A stretch of DNA of 11,053 nucleotides from a virus (taxonomy: Duplodnaviria; Heunggongvirae; Uroviricota; Caudoviricetes): positions 1 to 11,053 of the IMG/VR virus record IMGVR_UViG_2585427766_000020. The stretch is one strand, 5' to 3'. Positions 1 to 11,053 of the stretch are shown here, one piece after another; the stretch's first letter is position 1, and every line of letters begins with the position of its first letter. Both the position numbers and the translations under genes were made by a program. The notes below the pieces were generated by a model, which ran no database searches, was not told the DNA's origin, and saw only the letters and a program-made list of their open reading frames with translations.

Positions 1-273
1 CCGACTGCGGCCTGAGTTTTTTAAGTGACGTAAAATCGTGTTGAGGCCAACGCCCATAATGCGGGCAGTTGCCCGGCATCCAACGCCATTCATGGCCATA
101 TCAATGATTTTCTGGTGCGTACCGGGTTGAGAAGCGGTGTAAGTGAACTGCAGTTGCCATGTTTTACGGCAGTGAGAGCAGAGATAGCGCTGATGTCCGG
201 CGGTGCTTTTGCCGTTACGCACCACCCCGTCAGTAGCTGAACAGGAGGGACAGCTGATAGAAACAGAAGCCAC
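1..273 (-). CDS. insA: IS1 InsA (transposition regulator), 91 codons; stop codon lies just outside the window
   Basis: Minus-strand translation from GTG at 271-273 gives [18 protein letters not shown]...[12 protein letters not shown], matching InsA as I remember it. The 90-302 ORF in the supplied track is a different frame and is not InsA. Confidence 0.88.
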
Positions 274-301
274 TGGAGCACCTCAAAAACACCATCATAC
301 A

Positions 302-1096
302 CTAAATCAGTAAGTTGGCAGCATCACCTGAAAACGCTTTGTGGATTTTACCCATTTCTTCGACTTTTGCAGCACGCAGTTGATCCATTACTTTGTCATA
401 AGAGAATCCAGAAGAGTAGATACGATACCCTTTCAGAAACTTTTCATGCAGACGCTGAATATTGTCCAGTAAATAAGCGAATACTAGAGGTGAATCAATT
501 CCATCACTAACTGCTTGGATACTTTCAATCAGAATATCTAGCTTCTGATCCTTATGGGTATCATCATTGAAACAAGCTATAAGGTTATCAAGATACTCTC
601 TTTGCAAATTTTGTACATTTTCTGCAGCGAAGTGCGGTAATAGCTTGATAACTTCTTTTTTCAGAAAAACTAACTGACAAGTTGAGTTATCAAAGTAGGC
701 CGCGGCCTCTTTTAGCAGGTTAACGAACTCGAGAATCTTCCGGTAGTTGCTGATGAAAACGGGGATATCTTCATCATCATTACGAAACTTTGTTTCTAGG
801 ATGAAGTAATTAGCTGGCTCAAGGCACTGATGCTTTGGAGCATTTAGCAATTTTTCATGGGTGGAAAACACAAGTCCCAGTCCACTCCGTGGTGACGTCA
901 CACGTAGGATGATCGTGTTACCTGGAGCGATAGTGCCTGTATCAATAGAAAGACCATATTCACGAGGATCATCAAGCAAAGTATCAACCAGATCACAATC
1001 GGACTGATCTAAGAGCAACAGCGAACCGACACGAAACCCCTCTTGGAATTCCATACGACGATACAGATCTGTCAGCATCTCAAATGAAATCGCCAC
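302..1096 (-). CDS. Hypothetical protein, second gene of the YejK-like operon; C-terminus truncated by IS1 (last 8 codons GDAANLLI + stop are encoded by the IS1 repeat)
   Basis: GTG start at 1094-1096 with GAGG Shine-Dalgarno 7 nt upstream, 2-nt gap to the upstream gene's stop (translational coupling). Low GC. No domain recognisable by eye. 302-328 is IS1 sequence. Confidence 0.7.
   Translation of the reverse strand: MAISFEMLTDLYRRMEFQEGFRVGSLLLLDQSDCDLVDTLLDDPREYGLSIDTGTIAPGNTIILRVTSPRSGLGLVFSTHEKLLNAPKHQCLEPANYFILETKFRNDDEDIPVFISNYRKILEFVNLLKEAAAYFDNSTCQLVFLKKEVIKLLPHFAAENVQNLQREYLDNLIACFNDDTHKDQKLDILIESIQAVSDGIDSPLVFAYLLDNIQRLHEKFLKGYRIYSSGFSYDKVMDQLRAAKVEEMGKIHKAFSGDAANLLI
306..328 (-). 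repeat. IS1 terminal inverted repeat (insA-proximal end, 23 bp)
   Basis: Direct read: atcagtaagttggcagcatcacc on the + strand, the reverse complement of the IS1 IR. Confidence 0.9.
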
Positions 1097-1098
1097 GA

Positions 1099-2106
1099 TT
1101 AAACCTCAGTCATCCACATTTCCCTAAATTCTTCAGGTACATTACGTAGGGTGATAATATTTGTTTCCGGATCATAATCAATATAGCCTTCAGTTTTCCC
1201 TTCCCGGTCAAACTTAAGTTCCCAATATTTAGACTTGCCTTTAAAAGATACCAGAGCCCGAATGACTCGACCATCAGGAACGAAGCCATCCGATAACTCC
1301 AACTCTTCAGCAGCAAGTTTACCAGATAACTCCTCGGGAGCCTGGGGCCAAATGGCATTAACAAGGGTTTCAAGACTAAGTGGTTCACCAGCCTTACTTA
1401 GTGCATGTAAGTGTTCAAACGCACTCTTAAGAAATGCATCTTTTTCAGCGCCGTCAAGTCCTTTCTCTGCCGCAAATGCTTTTAAAACGTCACGTAACTT
1501 TTCAGACTCTCGTTTGGCGATTAAGACATCATTACAGCCGAGGAACTGTTTAAAATAGTTTGAAACATTACCTTGCCCCTTAAGAAAACTGATATAGCGC
1601 TCTGCGCCACTTTCCCACGCGGTTAAGTCAATGCGCCCAGCCATACGCAGCTTAGCAATATCAAGATAGGTACTATCTTGGATGTTAAAATCATCTGTGA
1701 CAGTGGATCCAATGGTAGCGCTTACAATAGCTATCAACAGGTGTTCATTGTGTCCTATCACGATATTTGCAAAAAGAACATAACCACCAGTAGCCATGTT
1801 TTCTCGCTGAGAACGTTCCGTCAGGTGATGCATCATTCGGCAGGAACTTTGGTAGAAATCATCAACACCTTCGAGAAAGTCCCCAGCCATTCGTTCCATA
1901 GGATAGTTATCCGTATCGCCTTCAAAATAGCCATAACCTTTACCTGTGCGTCCTGCATATTTTGCACAAATATCGTTTATAAGGCGCTGGGAGGCTTCAG
2001 TAACTAGACCTTCTTCAGGACTCAATCTCTCAGAAGCGTCTCCATTTTGTTGTTTGTCTAAAATGTGAACTACAACGTGTTTAACTTCAATGGTCTGCTC
2101 AGACAT
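1099..2106 (-). CDS. YejK/NdpA-family (NA37) nucleoid-associated protein homolog, 335 aa, mobile-element-borne divergent copy
   Basis: Same length as E. coli YejK (335 aa). Core TYLDIAKLRMAGRIDLTAWESGAERYISFLKG matches the remembered YejK block [20 protein letters not shown]...RYLTFLKG; C-terminal YIDYDPETNIITL resembles IFWDPATDTLTI. SD AAGGTGGA 6 nt upstream of ATG. AT-rich codon usage unlike the neighbouring phage genes. Confidence 0.8.
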   Translation of the reverse strand: MSEQTIEVKHVVVHILDKQQNGDASERLSPEEGLVTEASQRLINDICAKYAGRTGKGYGYFEGDTDNYPMERMAGDFLEGVDDFYQSSCRMMHHLTERSQRENMATGGYVLFANIVIGHNEHLLIAIVSATIGSTVTDDFNIQDSTYLDIAKLRMAGRIDLTAWESGAERYISFLKGQGNVSNYFKQFLGCNDVLIAKRESEKLRDVLKAFAAEKGLDGAEKDAFLKSAFEHLHALSKAGEPLSLETLVNAIWPQAPEELSGKLAAEELELSDGFVPDGRVIRALVSFKGKSKYWELKFDREGKTEGYIDYDPETNIITLRNVPEEFREMWMTEV

Positions 2107-2176
2107 TAGCTATCCACCTTATTTTTTATTGCTTAATGGCAAATAATTTCTGCTATATGTTCTCGTTAGGAACACA

Positions 2177-2584
2177 TTAACCCACATTTTTTAACCGCTC
2201 AATCGTTGCGGATAATTCCTTCAGTTGTTTTTCCATCTCAATCACACGCTGTTTTTCTTCAGCGCCTCGCATGAGATCTCGCCGAACCTCAGGATCTAAC
2301 TGGTTTAGAAGTTCAAGCATTTTAAGGTCTGACGGGCTGAATTGATGTTGTGTTGGTACAGCAACAATTTCTTTAGATGGAATATGTTCTTTACCGGTAA
2401 GTAGCCAATCGATCGATACACCCAAATGGGTGCTTAGCGCAACAAGAGCCTCTGCGTTTGGTTCTCTCTCTCCACGCAAATAGTTTTGAAGTGAGCGATA
2501 TGGAATTTTTGATAAGTTAGATAATGCCTTTATTGTCATGCCATTAGCATCCATCACTTCACGCAATCTCTCTTTTGTACTCAT
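2177..2584 (-). CDS. Phage repressor, XRE/CI-type HTH DNA-binding protein (135 aa) with coiled-coil C-terminal half and no S24 peptidase domain
   Basis: MSTKERLREVMDANGMTIKALSNLSKIPYRSLQNYLRGEREPNAEALVALSTHLGVSIDWLL is a typical HTH_XRE fold signature. Leftward, divergent from the early operon. ATG at 2582-2584 chosen over the 2680 start, which would overlap the rightward gene and promoter. Confidence 0.8.
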   Translation of the reverse strand: MSTKERLREVMDANGMTIKALSNLSKIPYRSLQNYLRGEREPNAEALVALSTHLGVSIDWLLTGKEHIPSKEIVAVPTQHQFSPSDLKMLELLNQLDPEVRRDLMRGAEEKQRVIEMEKQLKELSATIERLKNVG

Positions 2585-2600
2585 TTGAACATATCTCAAT

Positions 2601-2628
2601 TTGACACACTCATTTGGGTGTGTACAAT
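2601..2628 (+). promoter_or_regulatory. Sigma70-type early promoter for the rightward operon: TTGACA (2601-2606), 16-bp spacer, TACAAT (2623-2628)
   Basis: Near-consensus hexamers read directly, about 45 bp upstream of the Cro/Ner-like start. Confidence 0.55.
2604..2623. promoter_or_regulatory. Candidate repressor operator: inverted repeat ACACAC-N8-GTGTGT inside the early promoter spacer
   Basis: Perfect 6-bp arms read directly; lies between -35 and -10 where a repressor would occlude RNA polymerase. Confidence 0.45.
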
Positions 2629-2672
2629 AGACCCAATAGAGTACATCATAACCTAACAGGAACACGGTGCAT

Positions 2673-2897
2673 ATGAACAAACAACAAGTTCGGGCACGGC
2701 TGGTTGAACGAGGCAGTAGCTTGCGCCAGTTCGCGCTTAACGCGGGCTATGAACCACGAACAGTCACCCAGGCAGTCAGTCGCTGGGCTGGTAAAAGTGA
2801 ACTACCTCGCGGTCGTTTGACTTATCGGATTTTGCGAGATCTATCGGTTGCAATAGGTAAAGAAGTTACCCCCGGTATCCTTAAGGAGGCGTCATGA
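2673..2897 (+). CDS. Cro/Ner-like small DNA-binding protein (about 74 aa)
   Basis: First rightward gene after the switch. RLVERGSSLRQFALNAGYEPRTVTQAVS resembles the Mu Ner HTH region in pattern. ATG 2673 preferred; GTG 2667 is an alternative. Stop overlaps the next start (ATGA at 2894-2897). Confidence 0.6.
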   Translation: MNKQQVRARLVERGSSLRQFALNAGYEPRTVTQAVSRWAGKSELPRGRLTYRILRDLSVAIGKEVTPGILKEAS

Positions 2898-3202
2898 ATA
2901 AACCAAATACATCAAGCTCAGGTACCCGTATTTTGCGCGTTCTTAAGGCCTTACGTGGCCACGCTTTGAACGGTGTTTCTAACGGGGAACTAGCGGTTGC
3001 ACTGCACGAATCACCGGCAAACATCAACCGGGCACTTAACACGCTCATTGAAGAAGGGTTGGCTCTGAAACTAGAAAACGGGCGTTTCGCACCAGGCATC
3101 CAGTTGCTGCAGATCGCCATGGCCCACAGTAACGAGATGGCACGTGCACAGGATCGCATTAACGAAATCAACCAACGTGTTATTTCAGGTAGTCGTTTGT
3201 AA
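2894..3202 (+). CDS. Winged-helix HTH DNA-binding protein (102 aa), hypothetical
   Basis: Strong SD AAGGAGG at 2883-2889. ILRVLKALRGHALNGVSNGELAVALHESPANINRALNTLIEEGLA looks like a MarR/IclR-type wHTH. Confidence 0.6.
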   Translation: MNKPNTSSSGTRILRVLKALRGHALNGVSNGELAVALHESPANINRALNTLIEEGLALKLENGRFAPGIQLLQIAMAHSNEMARAQDRINEINQRVISGSRL

Positions 3203-3212
3203 GGAGTAATCA

Positions 3213-4124
3213 ATGGGACGCACCAAATCACCGGTTAGCACTGAACTGAACGTCGAGGTACCGCTGTCGGATGATCTCAATGTCAGTCTAAACGCCATGA
3301 CACAGCATCGCATGGAAATCATGCAACAGTTCGGCGATGGTCTGCCCTATGAGCGCGATCGTGTTGTCCATGAGGCACGCTTTTATATGGCACAGAGCGC
3401 TGAGGCCATGCTGGAGGCAGGTAAGCGGCTGATAATCCTTAAGGAAAATGAACCACACGGGGAGTTTATAAAGATTCTTGAAAGTGAGTTGGGGCTGGCA
3501 TACCGGACATCTGTGAGAATGATGCAAGCATCGACAAAATACTTATCCCCGGCGCTGAAACCAAATGTGCCAACGTTGGCACATTTGGGAAAAGCCAAAC
3601 TTTTCGAATTAATGACAGAAGACGACGAAGAGCTTGCCGAACTGGCCGACGGCGGCACAGTTGCCGGCCTGACGCTTGACGACGTTGATCGCATGTCAGT
3701 ACGTGAATTGCGTCAGGCCCTGCGCGAAGCGCGCGAAACCAACGCAGCACAACAGCGCGTACTCGCTGACAAAAATGAAAAAATAGACTCACTCTCCACC
3801 AGACTGGAGAAGAAATCCCGTATTCAGCCGCCTGAGCCTGATGAAGAGGTTAAGAAGCTGCGGGCGGAAGTGACAGCATTAGCGGTTGAGGCGGAATCTG
3901 CTATCGCCGTTCGACTGTCCAGCGCTTTTGAGACGCTGTGCGCATATTGTGCTGAAAACATGATTGATACCCCCAGAGACTTCATGGCAGGCCTGGTCTG
4001 TCAACTGGAAAGCACAGCGCGTAGCCTGCGCTCCACATTTGACCTGCCGGATGAGCCAACAGGCAATGCCGCGCCTTCATGGCTGACTGAGCCGACGCCA
4101 CAGATTAACGGGCTGGAGGCATAA
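3213..4124 (+). CDS. Hypothetical coiled-coil protein (303 aa) located between the regulators and the transposase
   Basis: SD AAGGAG at 3201-3206. Long intact ORF in the operon; C-terminal half has heptad-like charged repeats. No family confidently recognised. Confidence 0.6.
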   Translation: MGRTKSPVSTELNVEVPLSDDLNVSLNAMTQHRMEIMQQFGDGLPYERDRVVHEARFYMAQSAEAMLEAGKRLIILKENEPHGEFIKILESELGLAYRTSVRMMQASTKYLSPALKPNVPTLAHLGKAKLFELMTEDDEELAELADGGTVAGLTLDDVDRMSVRELRQALREARETNAAQQRVLADKNEKIDSLSTRLEKKSRIQPPEPDEEVKKLRAEVTALAVEAESAIAVRLSSAFETLCAYCAENMIDTPRDFMAGLVCQLESTARSLRSTFDLPDEPTGNAAPSWLTEPTPQINGLEA

Positions 4125-4127
4125 CCA

Positions 4128-5897
4128 ATGAATGCTGCCCTGACTGAACGACTGGTTTATGTCGCCCGCGCGGCACGTGACGCGGGGCATGGTAAACGCG
4201 GTGCAATATACGACGCTGCCTGTGCTGAACTTGGCATGTCCCGCGCCACTCTGCTGCGCAGGCTGAAGGAGGTCTCTGTGACTGATAAACGCAAAAAACG
4301 CGCTGATGCCGGACGCAGCGCCCTGACCCGCGACGAAGCCGCGCTGATATCTGCCACACTGCGTGAGGCCACCCGCAAGAACGGTAAGCGTCTCTATTCC
4401 ATCGCGGATGCAGTGGAAACCCTGCGGGCTAACGGCTTTATCTCCGCAGGCAGAACAGATGAAACCACCGGTGAGTTTTTCCCGTTGTCCGAAGATGCCA
4501 TCAGTCGTGCCCTGCGTAACTATGGCCTGCACCCGGAACAACTGGATGCTCCTGCGCCGCATACCGAAGTGGCCAGTCTGCATCCCAATCATGTCTGGCA
4601 GATTGATGCCTCGCTCTGCACGCTTTACTACCTGAGCAATGGACACAAAGGGCTGCAGGTGATGGACAGCGCGAAGTTCTACAAGAACAAACCCGCTAAC
4701 CTTGCCCGTATCGCCAGTGACCGCGTGTGGAGTTACGAGATTACCGACCATGCCAGCGGCTGGATTTACGTTGAGTATGTGACGGGTGCGGAATCCGGTG
4801 AGAACCTGTGTTCTGTGCTTATCAACGCCATGCAGGAGCGTGGCGGCGCAGACGTGCTGCACGGCGTGCCAAAAATACTCTATCTCGACCCCGGTTCGGC
4901 AAACACCGCGGGTATGACGAAAAACATGTGCCGCTCACTGGGCATTGACCTGATAGCGCACAAGCCGCATAACGCCCGCGCCACCGGACAGGTGGAAAAG
5001 GCGCGTGACATTATCGAACGCAAGCTGGAGCCGGGTCTGAAGTTCCGGCCGGTTCACAGTCTGGAAGAACTCAACGCGCTGGCCGCGAAATGGCGCAGCC
5101 ACTTTAACGCCACGGCTGTTCACAGCCGCCACGGTAAAACCCGCACGGATATCTGGCTGAAGATTACTGCTGAGCAGCTGAAAAAAGCGCCTTCCGTTGA
5201 GGTATGTCGTGAACTGGCTGTGGCGGCACCAGAACTCCGCAAAGTCACGCCAAAACTTCGTGTCTCGTTCCGGGGCACTGAATTTGACGTATCAACGGTA
5301 CCGGGCGTACTGGTCGGTGAAAAACTGATGATTACCCGTAACCCGTGGCGCAGCGATGTGGCACAGGTGGTTCTGACCGGTGAGGACGGCCACGAGACGT
5401 TCTTCCTGGTCGAAGAGGTCAGAAAGAACGAGTTTGGCTTTGCTGAAGGCGCGGCGGTATTTGGCGAAAGTTACAAAGCCCTGCCGGAAACCCCGGCGCA
5501 GATGGCGGCAAAAGAAACCGAAGCGCTGGTCACCGGTACAGACAACGCCGCAGATGCAGCTGCCGCACGCAAGGCGAAGGCGCTGCCGTTCGGCGGGCGG
5601 CTTGACCCGTATAAACATATTGATGACGCCACACTTCCGGCCTATATGCCGAAGCGAGGTCAGGCCTCTGACGTACGCGGACCGCGCACTGAACAGCGTC
5701 CCATGACTCATGTGGAGGCCGCGAAAGCCCTGCGCGGGAAGTTCAGCGCCAACGGCCTTACCTGGACGCCGGAACATTACCGCCAGTTAACGGCACAGTA
5801 CCCGGACGGCGTACCGGAAGCCGCACTGGATGAAGTCATGGCCACGCTGACCACGCCGGCCCGCAGCAGTGTTATCAGCATTGTTAACGGCAACTGA
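4128..5897 (+). CDS. DDE transposase of a transposable phage (Mu A-like, rve/integrase-core family), 589 aa
   Basis: SD GGAGG at 4115-4119. HPNHVWQIDASLCTLYY is typical of the first catalytic-Asp region of rve-type transposases. Followed by a B-like ATPase and by gam, gemA-like and mor. Confidence 0.8.
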   Translation: MNAALTERLVYVARAARDAGHGKRGAIYDAACAELGMSRATLLRRLKEVSVTDKRKKRADAGRSALTRDEAALISATLREATRKNGKRLYSIADAVETLRANGFISAGRTDETTGEFFPLSEDAISRALRNYGLHPEQLDAPAPHTEVASLHPNHVWQIDASLCTLYYLSNGHKGLQVMDSAKFYKNKPANLARIASDRVWSYEITDHASGWIYVEYVTGAESGENLCSVLINAMQERGGADVLHGVPKILYLDPGSANTAGMTKNMCRSLGIDLIAHKPHNARATGQVEKARDIIERKLEPGLKFRPVHSLEELNALAAKWRSHFNATAVHSRHGKTRTDIWLKITAEQLKKAPSVEVCRELAVAAPELRKVTPKLRVSFRGTEFDVSTVPGVLVGEKLMITRNPWRSDVAQVVLTGEDGHETFFLVEEVRKNEFGFAEGAAVFGESYKALPETPAQMAAKETEALVTGTDNAADAAAARKAKALPFGGRLDPYKHIDDATLPAYMPKRGQASDVRGPRTEQRPMTHVEAAKALRGKFSANGLTWTPEHYRQLTAQYPDGVPEAALDEVMATLTTPARSSVISIVNGN

Positions 5898-5907
5898 GGA
5901 GGAAAAC

Positions 5908-7074
5908 ATGCTGGTACTGAAGCAGCAACTGAAAGAGGCCCGTATTTCACAGGCGGTGGTGGCGAGAGCTGTCGATGTTTCTGAGGCCACGCTGGCCCAG
6001 ATTGTGAATCATAACGCGTGGCCCCGCACCAGCCCCGGAGAAGTGCGCCGGCGTCTTGCGTCCTGGCTGGAAAGTCAGGGGATTGATACAGCGAAGAGTT
6101 TTGATGCTGTACAGGGCGCGGCCACGCCCCGTACATCGGGTACCACAGATAAAACGAGCCTCAGTGAGGAAGAGAATATGTTACTCAAAAAACAGGTGTT
6201 ATTTCCAGCAACCAAAAAAGCGTTTGGTCTTTTCCGTGACCCGTTCGCCGACGAAGCCATGCAGGGTTCTGATGATGTGTTCACCACCCCGGACATTCGC
6301 TACGTGCGTGAGGCGTTGTACCAGACAGCACGTCATGGTGGGTTTATGGCCGTCATCGGTGAGTCCGGTGCGGGTAAATCCACGCTGCGCCGTGACCTGA
6401 CTGAACGTATCAACCGCGAGAATGCGCCAGTGATTGTTATCGAGCCATACATCATCGCTATGGAAGACAACGATGTGAAAGGGAAAACTCTGAAGGCAGC
6501 AGCGATTGCCGAAGCCATTATCAGTACCATCGCACCACTGGAAAGCATCAGACGCAGTCAGGACGCCCGCTTTCGCCAGTTGCATCGCGTCCTGAAAGAC
6601 AGCAGCCAGGCGGGGTTCAGCCACGTTCTGGTGATTGAGGAGGCCCACAGTCTGCCCATTCCGACACTGAAACACCTCAAACGCTTTTTTGAGCTGGAGT
6701 CCGGTTTCAAAAAACTGCTGTCCATCGTGCTAATTGGTCAGCCGGAACTGGCGACAAAACTGTCTGAACGCAATATGGAAGTCCGTGAAGTCGTTCAGCG
6801 CTGTGAGGTGGTCGAACTTCTGCCTCTGGACAATAACCTTGAAGAATTTCTGACGTTCAAACTGCAACGGGCCGGTAAACAACTGACGGACATTATGGAC
6901 GCCAGCGCAGTGGATGCCATACGTGCCCGCCTGAGCAATCCGGGAAGTCATCGTAAAAATATGGTCAGCCTGCTGTATCCGCTGGCCGTCAGTAACCTGG
7001 TAATAGCCGCCATGAATCTGGCTGCTGAAATCGGGGTTCCACAGGTCAACGCTGACGTTGTCAAAGGGGTTTAA
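5908..7074 (+). CDS. AAA+ ATPase, transposition target-DNA activator (Mu B-like/TniB-like), 388 aa
   Basis: SD GAGGAGG at 5896-5902, ATG 5908. N-terminal HTH-like segment, then Walker A GESGAGKST and Walker B-like HVLVIEEAH. Sits immediately after the transposase as in Mu A-B. Confidence 0.8.
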   Translation: MLVLKQQLKEARISQAVVARAVDVSEATLAQIVNHNAWPRTSPGEVRRRLASWLESQGIDTAKSFDAVQGAATPRTSGTTDKTSLSEEENMLLKKQVLFPATKKAFGLFRDPFADEAMQGSDDVFTTPDIRYVREALYQTARHGGFMAVIGESGAGKSTLRRDLTERINRENAPVIVIEPYIIAMEDNDVKGKTLKAAAIAEAIISTIAPLESIRRSQDARFRQLHRVLKDSSQAGFSHVLVIEEAHSLPIPTLKHLKRFFELESGFKKLLSIVLIGQPELATKLSERNMEVREVVQRCEVVELLPLDNNLEEFLTFKLQRAGKQLTDIMDASAVDAIRARLSNPGSHRKNMVSLLYPLAVSNLVIAAMNLAAEIGVPQVNADVVKGV

Positions 7075-7076
7075 TA

Positions 7077-7346
7077 ATGAAATCCACCACAGGTATCAAC
7101 CAGCAAATCAGCAAAGTGCAGTCAGCCATTATGGCGCTTAAGGCGACGAACACGGATGTACAAAGCATCACCATCAGGGGGAACAAACCTGTCATCCGCG
7201 TTTCCCGGAGTGCGCATTGCATGCGCATGCTTGAGCAGGGAAAGGCCTGTTATCTGTATACCGGACATGACCACAGGGGATATTTCCGTCAGGGCGTTTT
7301 CGAACTGCACGGCTGTCGCGTCGTGTGGCCGGAATCTTTGTGGTAA
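7077..7346 (+). CDS. Hypothetical early protein (89 aa)
   Basis: Intact ORF 2 nt after the B-like stop, same strand and operon. No family recognised. Confidence 0.5.
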   Translation: MKSTTGINQQISKVQSAIMALKATNTDVQSITIRGNKPVIRVSRSAHCMRMLEQGKACYLYTGHDHRGYFRQGVFELHGCRVVWPESLW

Positions 7347-7373
7347 TCAGCACAACCGGAGAAATCATAAAAA

Positions 7374-7904
7374 ATGGCAAAAAGTACAAAAGGTGCAAAA
7401 CGTATCAAGGCCGCAGCAGCACTCTGGGTGCCGGGGACACGTGAAGAGGTCATTGAGGGCATCAGACTGCTCGGTGACGCACACCGTGAACTGGTCAGGG
7501 CTGAAACAGAAATGAATGACGCCATTGGCGATATCACCGCACGTTATGCCCCGCTCACCGAGAGCCTGAAAAAACGCATGGCCGAACTGCAGTCCGGTAT
7601 TCAGACATGGTGTGAGGCACACCGTGATGAACTGACCGGCAACGGGAAGGTGAAGTTCGCTAACCTCACCACCGGCGAGGTGCAGTGGCGAAACCGTCCG
7701 CCATCAGTCAGTATCCGTGGGGCGGATAATGTTATTGAATTACTGAGACGTCTGGGGCTTGAGCGCTTTATCCGTGTAAAGGAGGAAATAAATAAAGACG
7801 CTATCCTGAATGAAAAGGACGCCGTGAAAAATATTCCCGGTATTACCATAAAAAGTGATATTGAGGATTTTTCAATAATTCCTTTTGAGCAGGATGTGCA
7901 GTAA
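7374..7904 (+). CDS. gam: Host-nuclease inhibitor protein Gam (Mu Gam family; binds DNA ends, protects against RecBCD)
   Basis: 176 aa. Blocks ETEMNDAI, WCEA.RDELT, PPSVSIRG and GIT.KS.IEDFSIIPFEQ match Mu Gam (174 aa) as I remember it. Confidence 0.9.
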   Translation: MAKSTKGAKRIKAAAALWVPGTREEVIEGIRLLGDAHRELVRAETEMNDAIGDITARYAPLTESLKKRMAELQSGIQTWCEAHRDELTGNGKVKFANLTTGEVQWRNRPPSVSIRGADNVIELLRRLGLERFIRVKEEINKDAILNEKDAVKNIPGITIKSDIEDFSIIPFEQDVQ

Positions 7905-8001
7905 ACACACCACGTTAATTATTTAATAAAAACATTTTCTTTTTTATTCCGGCGTCAGCGCCGTGGGCTTCTGCACGCCGGAAACAGAGGAGAATTAAAT
8001 T

Positions 8002-8196
8002 ATGATATTTAAATGTATTCAGTGCGAGAGGGATATAACAGCCCTGCGTTTTCACAGCGCCATCGCCGTGATGTCCGGTAAATACCACATCCCTGCGGTA
8101 CGCGTCACCCTGGTCTGCCCGTACTGCAGCCAGCATTTTTCGGCAGACGTGCCCGTCATGGAATTCTCCCGCCCTGACAGGGAGGACTCGCAATGA
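8002..8196 (+). CDS. Small zinc-ribbon-like protein (64 aa), hypothetical
   Basis: Two CxxC pairs (CIQC...CPYC). SD GAGGAG at 7987-7992. Stop overlaps the next start. Confidence 0.5.
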   Translation: MIFKCIQCERDITALRFHSAIAVMSGKYHIPAVRVTLVCPYCSQHFSADVPVMEFSRPDREDSQ

Positions 8197-8465
8197 TTAC
8201 CCCACAGGAAGCACGACAGCGCACCCGAACCCTTGTTGAACACTATGTCAACGAGTGTGAATGCCGCGACCTCACCGATGTGAAGCACGTCCTGACGGCG
8301 CTAATCAGCATGACCGCTCAGGCCATTGTGGCGACCAACGGAAAGGCGGCTGCCCTGCAGGTACTGGTGAACACACTAACCCACACGGCAGCGCATGAGG
8401 TGCCGTACCGGATGGAAACCACTGCAGAAGGCGGTCTGCACATCACCGTCAGCCGGAATCACTGA
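8193..8465 (+). CDS. Hypothetical protein (90 aa)
   Basis: ATGA start/stop overlap with the upstream gene; GC-rich coding-like composition. No family recognised. Confidence 0.5.
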   Translation: MITPQEARQRTRTLVEHYVNECECRDLTDVKHVLTALISMTAQAIVATNGKAAALQVLVNTLTHTAAHEVPYRMETTAEGGLHITVSRNH

Positions 8466-8474
8466 GGGCGCAGC

Positions 8475-8780
8475 ATGACACGGTACACCATACTCACCCG
8501 CACCGCCCTCTACCGTCTGGCCCTGCAGCGTTTCGGGCCGGACGCACAGGCCCTGAAACTGACAGAAGAGGCCGCTGAACTGGCAGCCTGTGCTGCCCGC
8601 AACCTGAACGGACAGGGCAGTGAAAGTGACCTCGCGGCAGAGCTGGCAGACGTGGAAATCATGACAGAGCAGTTGCGCCTTCAGGGGATGGACCGGCTGA
8701 TTGACTTCCACAAACAGAAAAAACTGGAACGCCTTGCCGCACGGCTGGGCGTCATGTACACCGGAGATACTGAACAATGA
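8475..8780 (+). CDS. MazG-like nucleotide pyrophosphohydrolase family protein (101 aa)
   Basis: LKLTEEAAELAACAARNL...ESDLAAELADVEIM resembles the EExxE / ELADV helical signature of small MazG-like all-alpha NTP pyrophosphatases. Assignment from motif pattern only. Confidence 0.6.
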   Translation: MTRYTILTRTALYRLALQRFGPDAQALKLTEEAAELAACAARNLNGQGSESDLAAELADVEIMTEQLRLQGMDRLIDFHKQKKLERLAARLGVMYTGDTEQ

Positions 8781-9460
8781 CAGACTTGGATAAACACATT
8801 GAAAAACTGAAAAAGTTGCTGGCGCTGGCAGCATCCGGCAACCCGTATGAGGCTGCTCTGGCACTGCGCCGCGCCCGTAAACTGATGGATGTTCACGGCA
8901 TCACACATTCCGACATTGCCATGAGTGATATTGATGAAACCATCAGTCATTACTGGCCGACAGGCAGTCTCCGTCCACCGCGCTACATGCTGGGCCTGAT
9001 GAACATCATCCGCGAGGCATTTGGTGTTAACTCCATAATTCACCCCGGCACATATCCGGGTGTGGGGTTCTACGGCAACCGGGAACGGGCCGCACTGGCT
9101 GCGTACACCTGGGAAGTGCTGGCCCGCCAGCTGAAAAAGGCGCGTCAGCAGTATATCAGCGCACAGAACAAAAGAATAAAAACTGCCACCCGTACCAGCC
9201 GTGGTGACCAGTTTGCTGAAGGCTGGGTGCTGGCCGTTATCAGTGAAATACAGTCCTTCGCCCTGACCGATGACGAACGTGAACTGATGCAGCAGTGGCT
9301 GGAACATAAATACCCGCAGACGCAAACCACCAGGGCGCGTAAACCGGGAAGAAGCCGCAATGGCGACGCCTCGCGCTATGCGGGGTTTCGTGAAGGGCAG
9401 AACGTCAGACTGCACCGCCCGGTCAGTGGGCAGGAACAACAGAAACTGGAGGCCAGATGA
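8777..9460 (+). CDS. DUF2786-like phage protein (227 aa)
   Basis: N-terminal IEKLKKLLALAASGNPYEAALALRRARKLM is the characteristic DUF2786 motif, common in Mu-like and other phages. ATGA overlap with the upstream stop. Confidence 0.65.
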   Translation: MTDLDKHIEKLKKLLALAASGNPYEAALALRRARKLMDVHGITHSDIAMSDIDETISHYWPTGSLRPPRYMLGLMNIIREAFGVNSIIHPGTYPGVGFYGNRERAALAAYTWEVLARQLKKARQQYISAQNKRIKTATRTSRGDQFAEGWVLAVISEIQSFALTDDERELMQQWLEHKYPQTQTTRARKPGRSRNGDASRYAGFREGQNVRLHRPVSGQEQQKLEAR

Positions 9461-9687
9461 TTACGCTATCAGGTAACAGCCGGAAATTAAAAGCCTGCCG
9501 AATATCTGCCAGATACCTTTTTGCCCGCGCCTTTTTTAAGAACGTAAGGCCGGGGATCACAATTGGTGTTATTGCCGGACGCGAACAGGTTGAAAAATAC
9601 ATGTCAGGTGCATGGTGGAATAACGACCCTGTCATTGCTGCCCGTAATATTCATATCAGTTGGGGGGATATTCAGAATGACGGCTGA
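9457..9687 (+). CDS. Hypothetical protein (76 aa)
   Basis: ATGA overlap with upstream gene; in-operon ORF. Confidence 0.45.
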   Translation: MITLSGNSRKLKACRISARYLFARAFFKNVRPGITIGVIAGREQVEKYMSGAWWNNDPVIAARNIHISWGDIQNDG

Positions 9688-9892
9688 ATCTGTTGTATGT
9701 GCCCTGTTCTGGTATTGTTTTGTCGGTTGGTGTACTGCTGAACTGCACCGCCGTTCAGGGTTTTATTCACGTTACAGTGGTGCCGGCTACTGGATTAGCT
9801 GGTCGGTGATGTTCCTGTGCTGGCCTGTGGCGCTTCCTTTATATGTCGATTATATCGGTGGCGCAGGTAAAAGGAGCAACGATGATGACTAA
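9677..9892 (+). CDS. Small membrane protein with two predicted transmembrane segments (about 71 aa)
   Basis: Internal ATG at 9677 of the 9563-9892 ORF chosen to minimise overlap. Hydrophobic stretches VVCALFWYCFVGWC and YWISWSVMFLCWPVALPLYV. Confidence 0.45.
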   Translation: MTAESVVCALFWYCFVGWCTAELHRRSGFYSRYSGAGYWISWSVMFLCWPVALPLYVDYIGGAGKRSNDDD

Positions 9893-10334
9893 ACAACGTC
9901 TTATCCAGCTCATTCATATTGCCCGTAATGAACTGGGTATGGATGAAGACACCTACCGCCAGATGTTACAGGGGCTGACCGGTAAAGCCTCAACCAAAGG
10001 AATGGATACCACACAACTAAACTGCGTGCTGGAATCCATGAAAAGGAAAGGCTTTCGCGTTAAGCCTGCCAGAAAAGCCAGCTCCGGTTTACCGCTGGAT
10101 AACCATCCGCAGTCCAGGAAAATCCGTGCGCTATGGCTTGAAATGGCTGCTGCCGGCATTGTTCGTGACCGTTCAGAAAATGCATTAGCGCGGTGGATCA
10201 AGCGGGAAACGGGCATCAGCGCCCTGCGCTGGCTCAATACTGAACAGGCAAGCAGTGTTATTGAGAAACTGAAGAAGTGGCAGCACAGAGCTGCGGGAGT
10301 AAAACATGAGCGACCTGAATCAGTTTCGAAGTAA
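9882..10334 (+). CDS. gemA: GemA/gp16-like protein (Mu-like prophage gp16 family, DUF1018)
   Basis: SD AAGGAG at 9871-9876, ATG 9882. RLIQLIHIARNELGMDEDTYRQMLQGLTGKAS matches the remembered N-terminal signature of the Mu gp16/GemA family. Sits immediately upstream of mor as in Mu. Confidence 0.7.
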   Translation: MMTKQRLIQLIHIARNELGMDEDTYRQMLQGLTGKASTKGMDTTQLNCVLESMKRKGFRVKPARKASSGLPLDNHPQSRKIRALWLEMAAAGIVRDRSENALARWIKRETGISALRWLNTEQASSVIEKLKKWQHRAAGVKHERPESVSK

Positions 10335-10695
10335 AGGGCCGGAACTCCTGGTGGAACTGGCACAGCATACCTCTGAGACCGTTCGCGAGATTATTGATAT
10401 TGAGCCCGCAATTGCCGACCAGATTGGTCAGGCCGTCGCGAACCGCATGATGCAGGTCTGGGGCGGGCAAAACGTTTATTTCCCGATGGGCATGGTATGG
10501 AAGGTCAGTCAGCGCGACCGGGAAATCTTCAGGGAGTTTAACGGACGTAACCACCATGAACTGGCCCGCAAATTTGGTGTTTCGCTTCAGTGGGTCTACA
10601 GCGTGGTTAAGCGGGTAAGAAAAGAAGAACTGGATCGGATGCAGGGCAAGCTATTTGCTGATGAACCCGATGTAGATACGGAGAAAAAAGAGTAA
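10306..10695 (+). CDS. mor: Middle operon regulator Mor (Mor/C family transcription activator), 129 aa
   Basis: Same length as Mu Mor. VYFP and FNGRNHHELARKFGVSLQWVYSVVKRVRK match the Mor/C-family conserved FNGRN...Y and HTH region. Overlaps the gemA-like 3' end by 29 nt. Confidence 0.85.
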   Translation: MSDLNQFRSKGPELLVELAQHTSETVREIIDIEPAIADQIGQAVANRMMQVWGGQNVYFPMGMVWKVSQRDREIFREFNGRNHHELARKFGVSLQWVYSVVKRVRKEELDRMQGKLFADEPDVDTEKKE

Positions 10696-10724
10696 TATCT
10701 GCAATCAGGCTGGAGCGAGTTCTG

Positions 10725-11053
<329 letters not shown>

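Follow-up and report, generated by a model that had tools for sequence, protein, structure and literature searches.

The question raised by this locus is whether a short open reading frame (ORF), which lies directly behind the gene for a YejK-like nucleoid protein and whose product looks like a soluble orphan, is a real gene, and what it might do together with its neighbor. The window analyzed here is an 11,053-nt stretch of DNA, positions 1 to 11,053 of IMGVR_UViG_2585427766_000020, and the ORF covers 264 codons at positions 302-1096 on the minus strand. The original prediction, which was made from the sequence alone, described an acidic orphan protein with no membrane segment, tightly coupled to the YejK-like gene and possibly forming a sensor/effector pair with its product. 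The explanation favored in this study, which is considered probable by analogy with recently described systems, is that the ORF makes up the 5' two-thirds of the downstream gene in a two-gene antiphage module, carried as cargo by a Bcepmuvirus-like prophage and disrupted by IS1, in which a nucleoid-protein sensor would be coupled to a membrane effector. The sensor/effector reading was largely right, but it was anticipated by published work. The features at this end of the window are as follows:

Positions 1-328, minus strand: left end of IS1, with the terminal inverted repeat GGTGATGCTGCC... from 328, followed by the 5' part of insA, which is cut off by the window edge at position 1 (sequence reading).
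Positions 302-328, minus strand: IS1-encoded tail of the ORF, residues 257-264 (GDAANLLI, 8 codons), with a TAG stop at 304-302 (comparison with the intact L001 gene).
Positions 329-1096, minus strand: native part of the putative effector gene, DS-1B/Pag2B-like, codons 1-256 (100% identical there to P0001/WP_001007985.1).
Positions 1094-1107, minus strand: translation start region, with GAGG at 1107-1104, a 7-nt spacer and GTG at 1096-1094 (sequence reading).
Positions 1099-2106, minus strand: gene for a YejK-like nucleoid-associated protein of 335 aa, DS-1A/Pag2A-like (Pfam NA37, PF04245, E 1e-80, full length).

The 5' end of the ORF reads exactly as the original prediction had it. The GTG at 1096-1094 is also the start codon annotated by RefSeq in intact copies of the gene (WP_001007985.1), and the N-terminus is conserved in an alignment of the family. 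The YejK-like gene stops with TAA at 1101-1099, leaving 2 nt (1098-1097) before the GTG, and the GAGG falls within the last codons of the YejK-like gene, an arrangement also found in loci L001-L005. The product is acidic as claimed (pI 4.96, net charge -12). When the ORF was compared with a 90%-identical copy from E. coli, dN/dS was 0.031/0.390, or about 0.08, and the partner ORF is therefore under purifying selection.

The original prediction had doubted that the ORF ends at the true C-terminus of the protein, and this doubt was correct, as the last 8 codons and the stop codon belong to IS1. The terminal repeat of the element reads GGTGATGCTGCCAACTTACTGAT... from 328 downwards and is followed by the start of insA, and the intact L001 gene reads ...KAFS-DIQNHILGIPV... 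across the insertion point. The junction is ambiguous by 1 nt because the G at 328 also equals the target base. Among 5,426 complete E. coli genomes, 4,966 carry features annotated as 'IS1 family transposase' that match positions 1 to about 346 of the window, and the median copy number is 10 per genome. Eighteen genomes without IS1 at this site match the window at 99.6-100% (six of them at 100%) only from 328 onwards, and a nineteenth, also without IS1, gives a 90.5% match from 330. Since the IS1-free genomes match only from 328 and the stretch from 1 to about 346 matches IS1 features, GDAANLLI and the stop codon are IS1 sequence.

The window's IS1 junction was carried by none of the complete E. 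coli genomes compared. The exact truncated 264-aa product is on record from 49 contigs (KEL41317.1/WP_249402568.1), and draft assemblies of E. coli hold a 255-aa N-terminal fragment together with 146- and 147-aa 'partial' C-terminal fragments that start with SDIQNH or FSDIQNH. Because the N- and C-terminal fragments overlap by 'FS', they indicate that IS1 simply inserted, duplicating a short target, and split the gene without deleting any of it. Given the 49 contigs and the matching fragments within the same assemblies, the disruption is no assembly error, and at least one lineage of E. coli carries it as an established allele. P0337, P0340 and P0342 come from such drafts, where the N- and C-terminal 'partial' fragments that match each other are found at the ends of contigs within the same assemblies.

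An untruncated ortholog, which had been proposed as the way to find the true C-terminus, was found in genomes without IS1, and one intact copy of the two-gene operon spans 1584186-1586401 of NZ_CP086627.1. There the partner gene is 1,206 nt long and encodes a protein of 401 aa (WP_001007985.1, P0001 in this study), which past residue 256 reads DIQNHILGIPVASVIVATQFK... and so has its C-terminus well beyond the IS1 cut. Helices at about 290-310 and 356-378 are both strongly hydrophobic and conserved across the partner family, and a weaker hydrophobic stretch is found at 262-280 of the intact protein. The native codons 1-256 of the window encode the whole acidic globular N-terminal domain (residues 1-230) and the first half of a conserved juxtamembrane helix, whereas the transmembrane part, codons 257-401, is absent from the window. 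The lack of a membrane segment noted in the original prediction is thus true of the truncated ORF only, and it arises because IS1 cuts the gene after codon 256. The insertion point falls within the most conserved stretch of the family, for which the consensus is KGYRxFVSGFSYDKVxDQLRxAKxEExGKIHKxFSDIQNQILGIPVATVIVATQMK, with F231, S232, Y233, K250, D257, Q259 and P266 invariant.

The intact partner is a membrane protein made up of an acidic N-terminal globular domain, a highly conserved juxtamembrane motif and two conserved transmembrane helices, and the helices are most likely its killing part. The N-terminal domain of the intact partner (1-230) has a pI of 4.83 and a net charge of -12, and its C-terminal part is basic (pI 9.1). 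Across the family the median pI of the N-terminal domain is 5.1 and its net charge ranges from -15 to +2, so that some members are near neutral. An AlphaFold2 model of the intact protein (mean pLDDT 81) predicts an alpha/beta domain over residues 1-230 followed by long helices at 233-274, 285-331 and 333-378, and the N-terminal domain modeled alone reached a pLDDT of 94.6 and a pTM of 0.89. Structural searches with this domain gave no Foldseek match at E <= 0.001 against viral predicted structures, and neither the PDB nor the viral structure library that was searched offered a structural neighbor. Profiles fared similarly, as the partner family found nothing better than E 0.77 among PDB sequences, and full-length members produced only noise against Pfam (E above 0.02, scores below the cut-off). 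The domain has a confident model and no known structural relative.

The description of the protein as an orphan did not hold. A word-indexed search returned 166 homologs of the partner, and an exhaustive profile search raised this to 1,305 representatives (50% identity level), of which 957 scored below E 1e-10; the family corresponds to phrog_5023. In contigs taken as one genome per species, 59 partner loci were found in gamma-, beta- and alpha-proteobacteria, and single metagenome-assembled genomes (MAGs) labeled Thermoanaerobaculia and Candidatus Yonathbacteria were also among them. In 56 of the 59 loci the gene immediately upstream, on the same strand, is YejK-like. The distance from the YejK-like stop to the partner start has a median of -8 nt and is at most 20 nt in 56 of 58 loci, which makes the tight coupling seen in the window a property of the whole family. 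The two proteins have also diverged together, with pairwise identities of the YejK-like protein and its partner correlated in a mirror-tree comparison at r = 0.92 overall and at 0.81 among divergent pairs. Together with the YejK-like gene, the partner forms a widespread gene pair carried by prophages.

The three exceptions to the pairing are all loci from Cupriavidus (L051-L053), in which nothing but the C-terminal half of the partner is present. There, at 6992-7618, a 208-aa ORF with the conserved motif and the transmembrane helices sits amid unrelated metabolic genes, and no YejK-like gene was found nearby. A separate architecture was considered for these loci and rejected; they are probably gene remnants.

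The surroundings of the pair bear on what it might be for. Beyond the YejK-like gene the window contains the following features:

Positions 2177-2584, minus strand: prophage repressor gene, HTH_3/CI-like (Pfam HTH_3 and Phage_CI_repr; RefSeq coordinates transferred from L001).
Positions 3213-11053: prophage early region, with a DUF3102 gene, a DDE transposase (4128-5897), an ExeA-like ATPase (5869-7074), Gam (7374-7904) and a Mor-like gene (10306-10695).

Together with a Ner-like regulator, the repressor, the DUF3102 gene, transposase, ExeA-like ATPase, Gam and Mor-like gene mark the window as the early region of a Bcepmuvirus-like transposable prophage, and its early genes are 97% identical to those of Escherichia phage PhiKM, a phage from uropathogenic E. 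coli. The repressor is directly upstream of the YejK-like gene on the same strand, across a gap of 70 nt in which a promoter and terminator scan predicted no terminator. The longest ORF for the repressor starts at a TTG at 2680 (167 aa, 2177-2680), compared with a 135-aa RefSeq product whose start at 2584 comes by transfer from L001. The GC content of the pair is 40-44%, against 52-60% for the phage backbone, and the related phages PhiKM and KP12 do not have the pair at the slot beside the repressor.

This slot, between the repressor and the dam/lysis genes (noted at 2107-2176 in the window), varies in content among closely related phages. It holds the YejK pair here, a single 177-aa hypothetical gene in KP12 (L068, 4407-5024) and other small genes in PhiKM (L069, 4342-7317). 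This suggests a hotspot for cargo, in which a search for further defense genes may pay off. In intact prophages a DNA adenine methylase gene, found beyond the IS1 site at 4804-5574 of L001, converges on the partner gene with a 3' overlap of 11 nt.

Outside this phage type, the pair in Salmonella and Citrobacter (L062-L065) is carried by lambdoid prophages, where it lies on the opposite strand with the antiterminator gene Q on one side and the holin gene on the other, and in Paraburkholderia it is found in an island with a Mrr-type nuclease. This is the pattern that would be expected of mobile accessory cargo such as prophage defense genes. In Citrobacter, the neighborhood of the pair also includes, at a distance of a few kb, a colicin-domain gene and a Schlafen/AlbA_2 gene.

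The upstream protein of the pair is a clear relative of a housekeeping nucleoid protein. It aligns over its full length (residues 4-330) with YejK (NdpA) of E. coli, PDB 9be2, at E 6.8e-30, and it is a member of phrog_3767. The housekeeping yejK gene stands alone on the chromosome, whereas the YejK-like gene of the window is mobile, low in GC and always coupled to a membrane partner. No PADLOC match was found for the YejK-like protein at E <= 0.1, and PADLOC-DB v2 (2023) contained no model that matched either the YejK-like protein or its partner convincingly. Within the pair, the YejK-like protein is presumed to be the sensor.

An experimentally validated relative of the pair was found in a recent survey. 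DefensePredictor (Science 2026, PMC13092281) reports 42 new E. coli defense units that were validated, and it describes DS-1 (working name D390) from E. coli GCF_003886375.1, in which DS-1A (391 aa, WP_000355468.1) carries a zinc finger ahead of an NA37 domain and DS-1B, a 404-aa hypothetical protein (WP_000150292.1), is encoded 2 nt after the DS-1A gene (PMC13092281). DS-1 protects E. coli when cloned alone, outside any phage, and it reduced plating by about 7.6 logs for Bas1, 2.7 for Bas26, 1.7 for Bas3 and T3, and 1.0 for T5 (PMC13092281, Tables S6-S8). When the partner-family profile was aligned with the DS-1B sequence using hhalign, the probability was 96.3% (E 1.9e-9), and with an alignment of 36 DS-1B family sequences it rose to 99.2% (E 6.6e-20) over 351 columns, nearly the full length. 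Both the partner and DS-1B also fall in phrog_5023 (E 5.6e-143 and 2.3e-158, respectively), and the YejK-like protein matches DS-1A by BLASTP at E 8e-9 with 23% identity. These profile matches indicate that the partner family is homologous to DS-1B.

DS-1 and the intact copies of the pair share a YejK/NA37 gene followed on the same strand by a gene of about 400 codons whose product has a C-terminal transmembrane and coiled-coil region; in L001, a 335-aa protein is followed after a 2-nt gap by the 401-aa protein with its two transmembrane helices. Differences exist as well. The second gene of the window keeps only codons 1-256 because of IS1, and identity between the partner and DS-1B is about 19-22%. 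DS-1A has an N-terminal zinc ribbon, with NA37 occupying residues 42-382 of 391, and this ribbon is absent from the YejK-like protein of the window, where NA37 starts at residue 12 of 335 and so leaves no room for a zinc ribbon of about 40 residues. In the parts of the DefensePredictor tables that were covered, the accessions of the window gene pair were not found. From the homology with DS-1, we infer an antiphage role for the divergent subfamily to which the window pair belongs.

How such a pair could work is suggested by PANGU, a group of two-gene systems built on a YejK-like nucleoid protein, for which candidates were picked by their linkage to defense islands (bioRxiv 10.64898/2026.04.06.716658). 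Type II PANGU from uropathogenic E. coli consists of the nucleoid protein Pag2A and of Pag2B, whose N-terminal domain is acidic and 'DNA-mimicking' and whose C-terminal domain is transmembrane; the system requires both genes and shows an abortive-infection phenotype (10.64898/2026.04.06.716658). Pag2A binds the acidic domain of Pag2B with a KD of 19 nM, and Pag2A-GFP is found on the nucleoid before infection and leaves it upon infection by T4 (10.64898/2026.04.06.716658). The locus studied here resembles this system in having a bicistronic operon with a YejK-like nucleoid protein (NA37, E 1e-80; a 2-nt gap in the window) and, in the intact ortholog, an acidic N-terminal domain and two transmembrane helices, though the acidity is moderate (pI 4.83) and the DNA mimicry putative. 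The likeness is therefore one of architecture and of proposed sensor-effector logic, and the partner is likened to Pag2B as that protein is described. The window copy differs in being prophage cargo and in missing its membrane part.

If the analogy with type II PANGU holds, the YejK-like protein would sit on the nucleoid in a healthy lysogen. An infecting phage that degrades or remodels host DNA would free it, and the freed protein would then bind the acidic, DNA-like N-terminal domain of the 401-aa inner-membrane partner. We infer that this binding would switch on the transmembrane part and damage the membrane. The infected cell would stop growing before the phage cycle is completed, which amounts to abortive infection. 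In the window itself, the system should be dead: with the transmembrane part lost to IS1, what is left is an intact sensor gene plus a fragment of the partner that comprises its N-terminal region and is soluble. The original sensor/effector proposal is supported by the linkage in nearly all loci, the co-divergence, the homology with DS-1B and the findings reported for type II PANGU, but the copy for which it was made is probably non-functional because its partner gene is disrupted. The window pair would be a divergent, IS1-inactivated copy of a subfamily that presumably works like type II PANGU.

One alternative is that the direction of signaling is reversed, as it would be in a Kiwa-like system. 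The membrane protein would sense attachment, DNA injection or membrane stress; in resting cells it would hold the YejK-like protein through its DNA-mimic domain, and upon infection it would free it to coat incoming phage DNA, blocking replication or late transcription, and death of the cell would not be required. In Kiwa, the partner of the membrane protein KwaA is KwaB, a dimer that binds DNA and that a DNA mimic blocks (10.1101/2023.02.26.530102), and the pair studied here shares with it the combination of a membrane protein and a DNA-binding protein whose DNA site a DNA mimic can occupy. An acidic domain that binds a DNA-binding protein would suit sequestration as well as activation, and residues 262-394 of the intact partner (P0001) gave a weak PADLOC match to KwaA (E 8e-5). 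However, this match was found in only 3-4 of 57 members of the partner family and was absent at the profile level against PDB sequences, and the YejK-like protein matches NA37 and not KwaB/DUF4868. The gene order is reversed relative to Kiwa, and the partner has a large cytoplasmic domain whereas KwaA is without one. In addition, Pag2A is on the nucleoid and not at the membrane before infection, and the phenotype is abortive (10.64898/2026.04.06.716658), which leaves the Kiwa-like scheme rather unlikely. The KwaA match of the C-terminal region was also set aside as a lead in its own right, as it was not robust across the family.

The remaining alternatives would give the locus some role other than defense, or none. 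The pair could serve the prophage life cycle by tethering or compacting prophage DNA, modulating transposition or tuning the timing of lysis, and it does adjoin holin and endolysin genes in two unrelated types of prophage, the Bcepmuvirus-like and the lambdoid. Nucleoid proteins are cofactors in Mu-type transposition, and NdpA2 reportedly controls transfer of an integrative element in Pseudomonas. Closely related phages are without the pair, though, so it must be dispensable for the phage; in lambdoid prophages the pair is on the strand opposite the late operon; it is also found in non-phage islands; its homolog DS-1 protects in the absence of any phage genome around it; and an IS1-disrupted allele persists on 49 contigs. 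A life-cycle role is judged improbable on these grounds. Less likely still is a new function for the truncated 264-aa product, which would act as a soluble decoy that mimics DNA and titrates the YejK-like sensor or other proteins that bind DNA, so that the IS1 allele would have been kept and not merely tolerated. The truncation removes precisely the membrane part, the confidently folded N-terminal domain is left whole, and the same truncated protein is the one recorded on 49 contigs. However, a single clonal lineage would explain those contigs, IS1 is highly active in E. coli (the median of 10 copies per genome given above), the cut lies inside the most conserved helix and may destabilize the product, and there was no sign that the truncation has recurred independently. 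Finally, the original prediction had named a lack of conserved orthologs, or of conservation in frame, as what would mark the ORF as spurious, and a spurious ORF or a functionless, lineage-specific orphan might be suspected from a 264-aa product that matches nothing in Pfam or PADLOC. The 1,305 family representatives, the low dN/dS, the synteny across proteobacterial classes and the confident fold prediction refute the spurious-ORF reading, and this last explanation is almost certainly wrong.

With the membrane-effector module preferred over these alternatives, a more specific proposal can be made, although we regard it as unlikely. The phrog_5023 proteins may form a class of their own, that of membrane effectors gated by a nucleoid protein, in which the invariant juxtamembrane motif (FSYDKV...KIHKxFSDIQNQILGIPVATVIVATQ) and the two transmembrane helices would form a pore only upon docking of a YejK-like dimer to the N-terminal domain. 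Still more speculatively, the soluble N-terminal domain left by the IS1 truncation could persist as a decoy that silences the sensor.

That a YejK-like nucleoid protein can serve as the infection sensor of a defense system has been known since 2026. What this locus adds is a divergent and widespread subfamily of the membrane-effector type, present in alpha-, beta- and gamma-proteobacteria and in two MAGs, and a module that travels as prophage cargo at classic accessory-gene sites, beside the repressor in Bcepmuvirus-like prophages and, in lambdoid ones, in the interval from Q to the lysis genes. It also holds a lesson for annotation, as the apparently soluble orphan was an artefact of truncation. 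The IS1 allele is a natural knockout that parts the putative sensor-binding domain from the membrane part.
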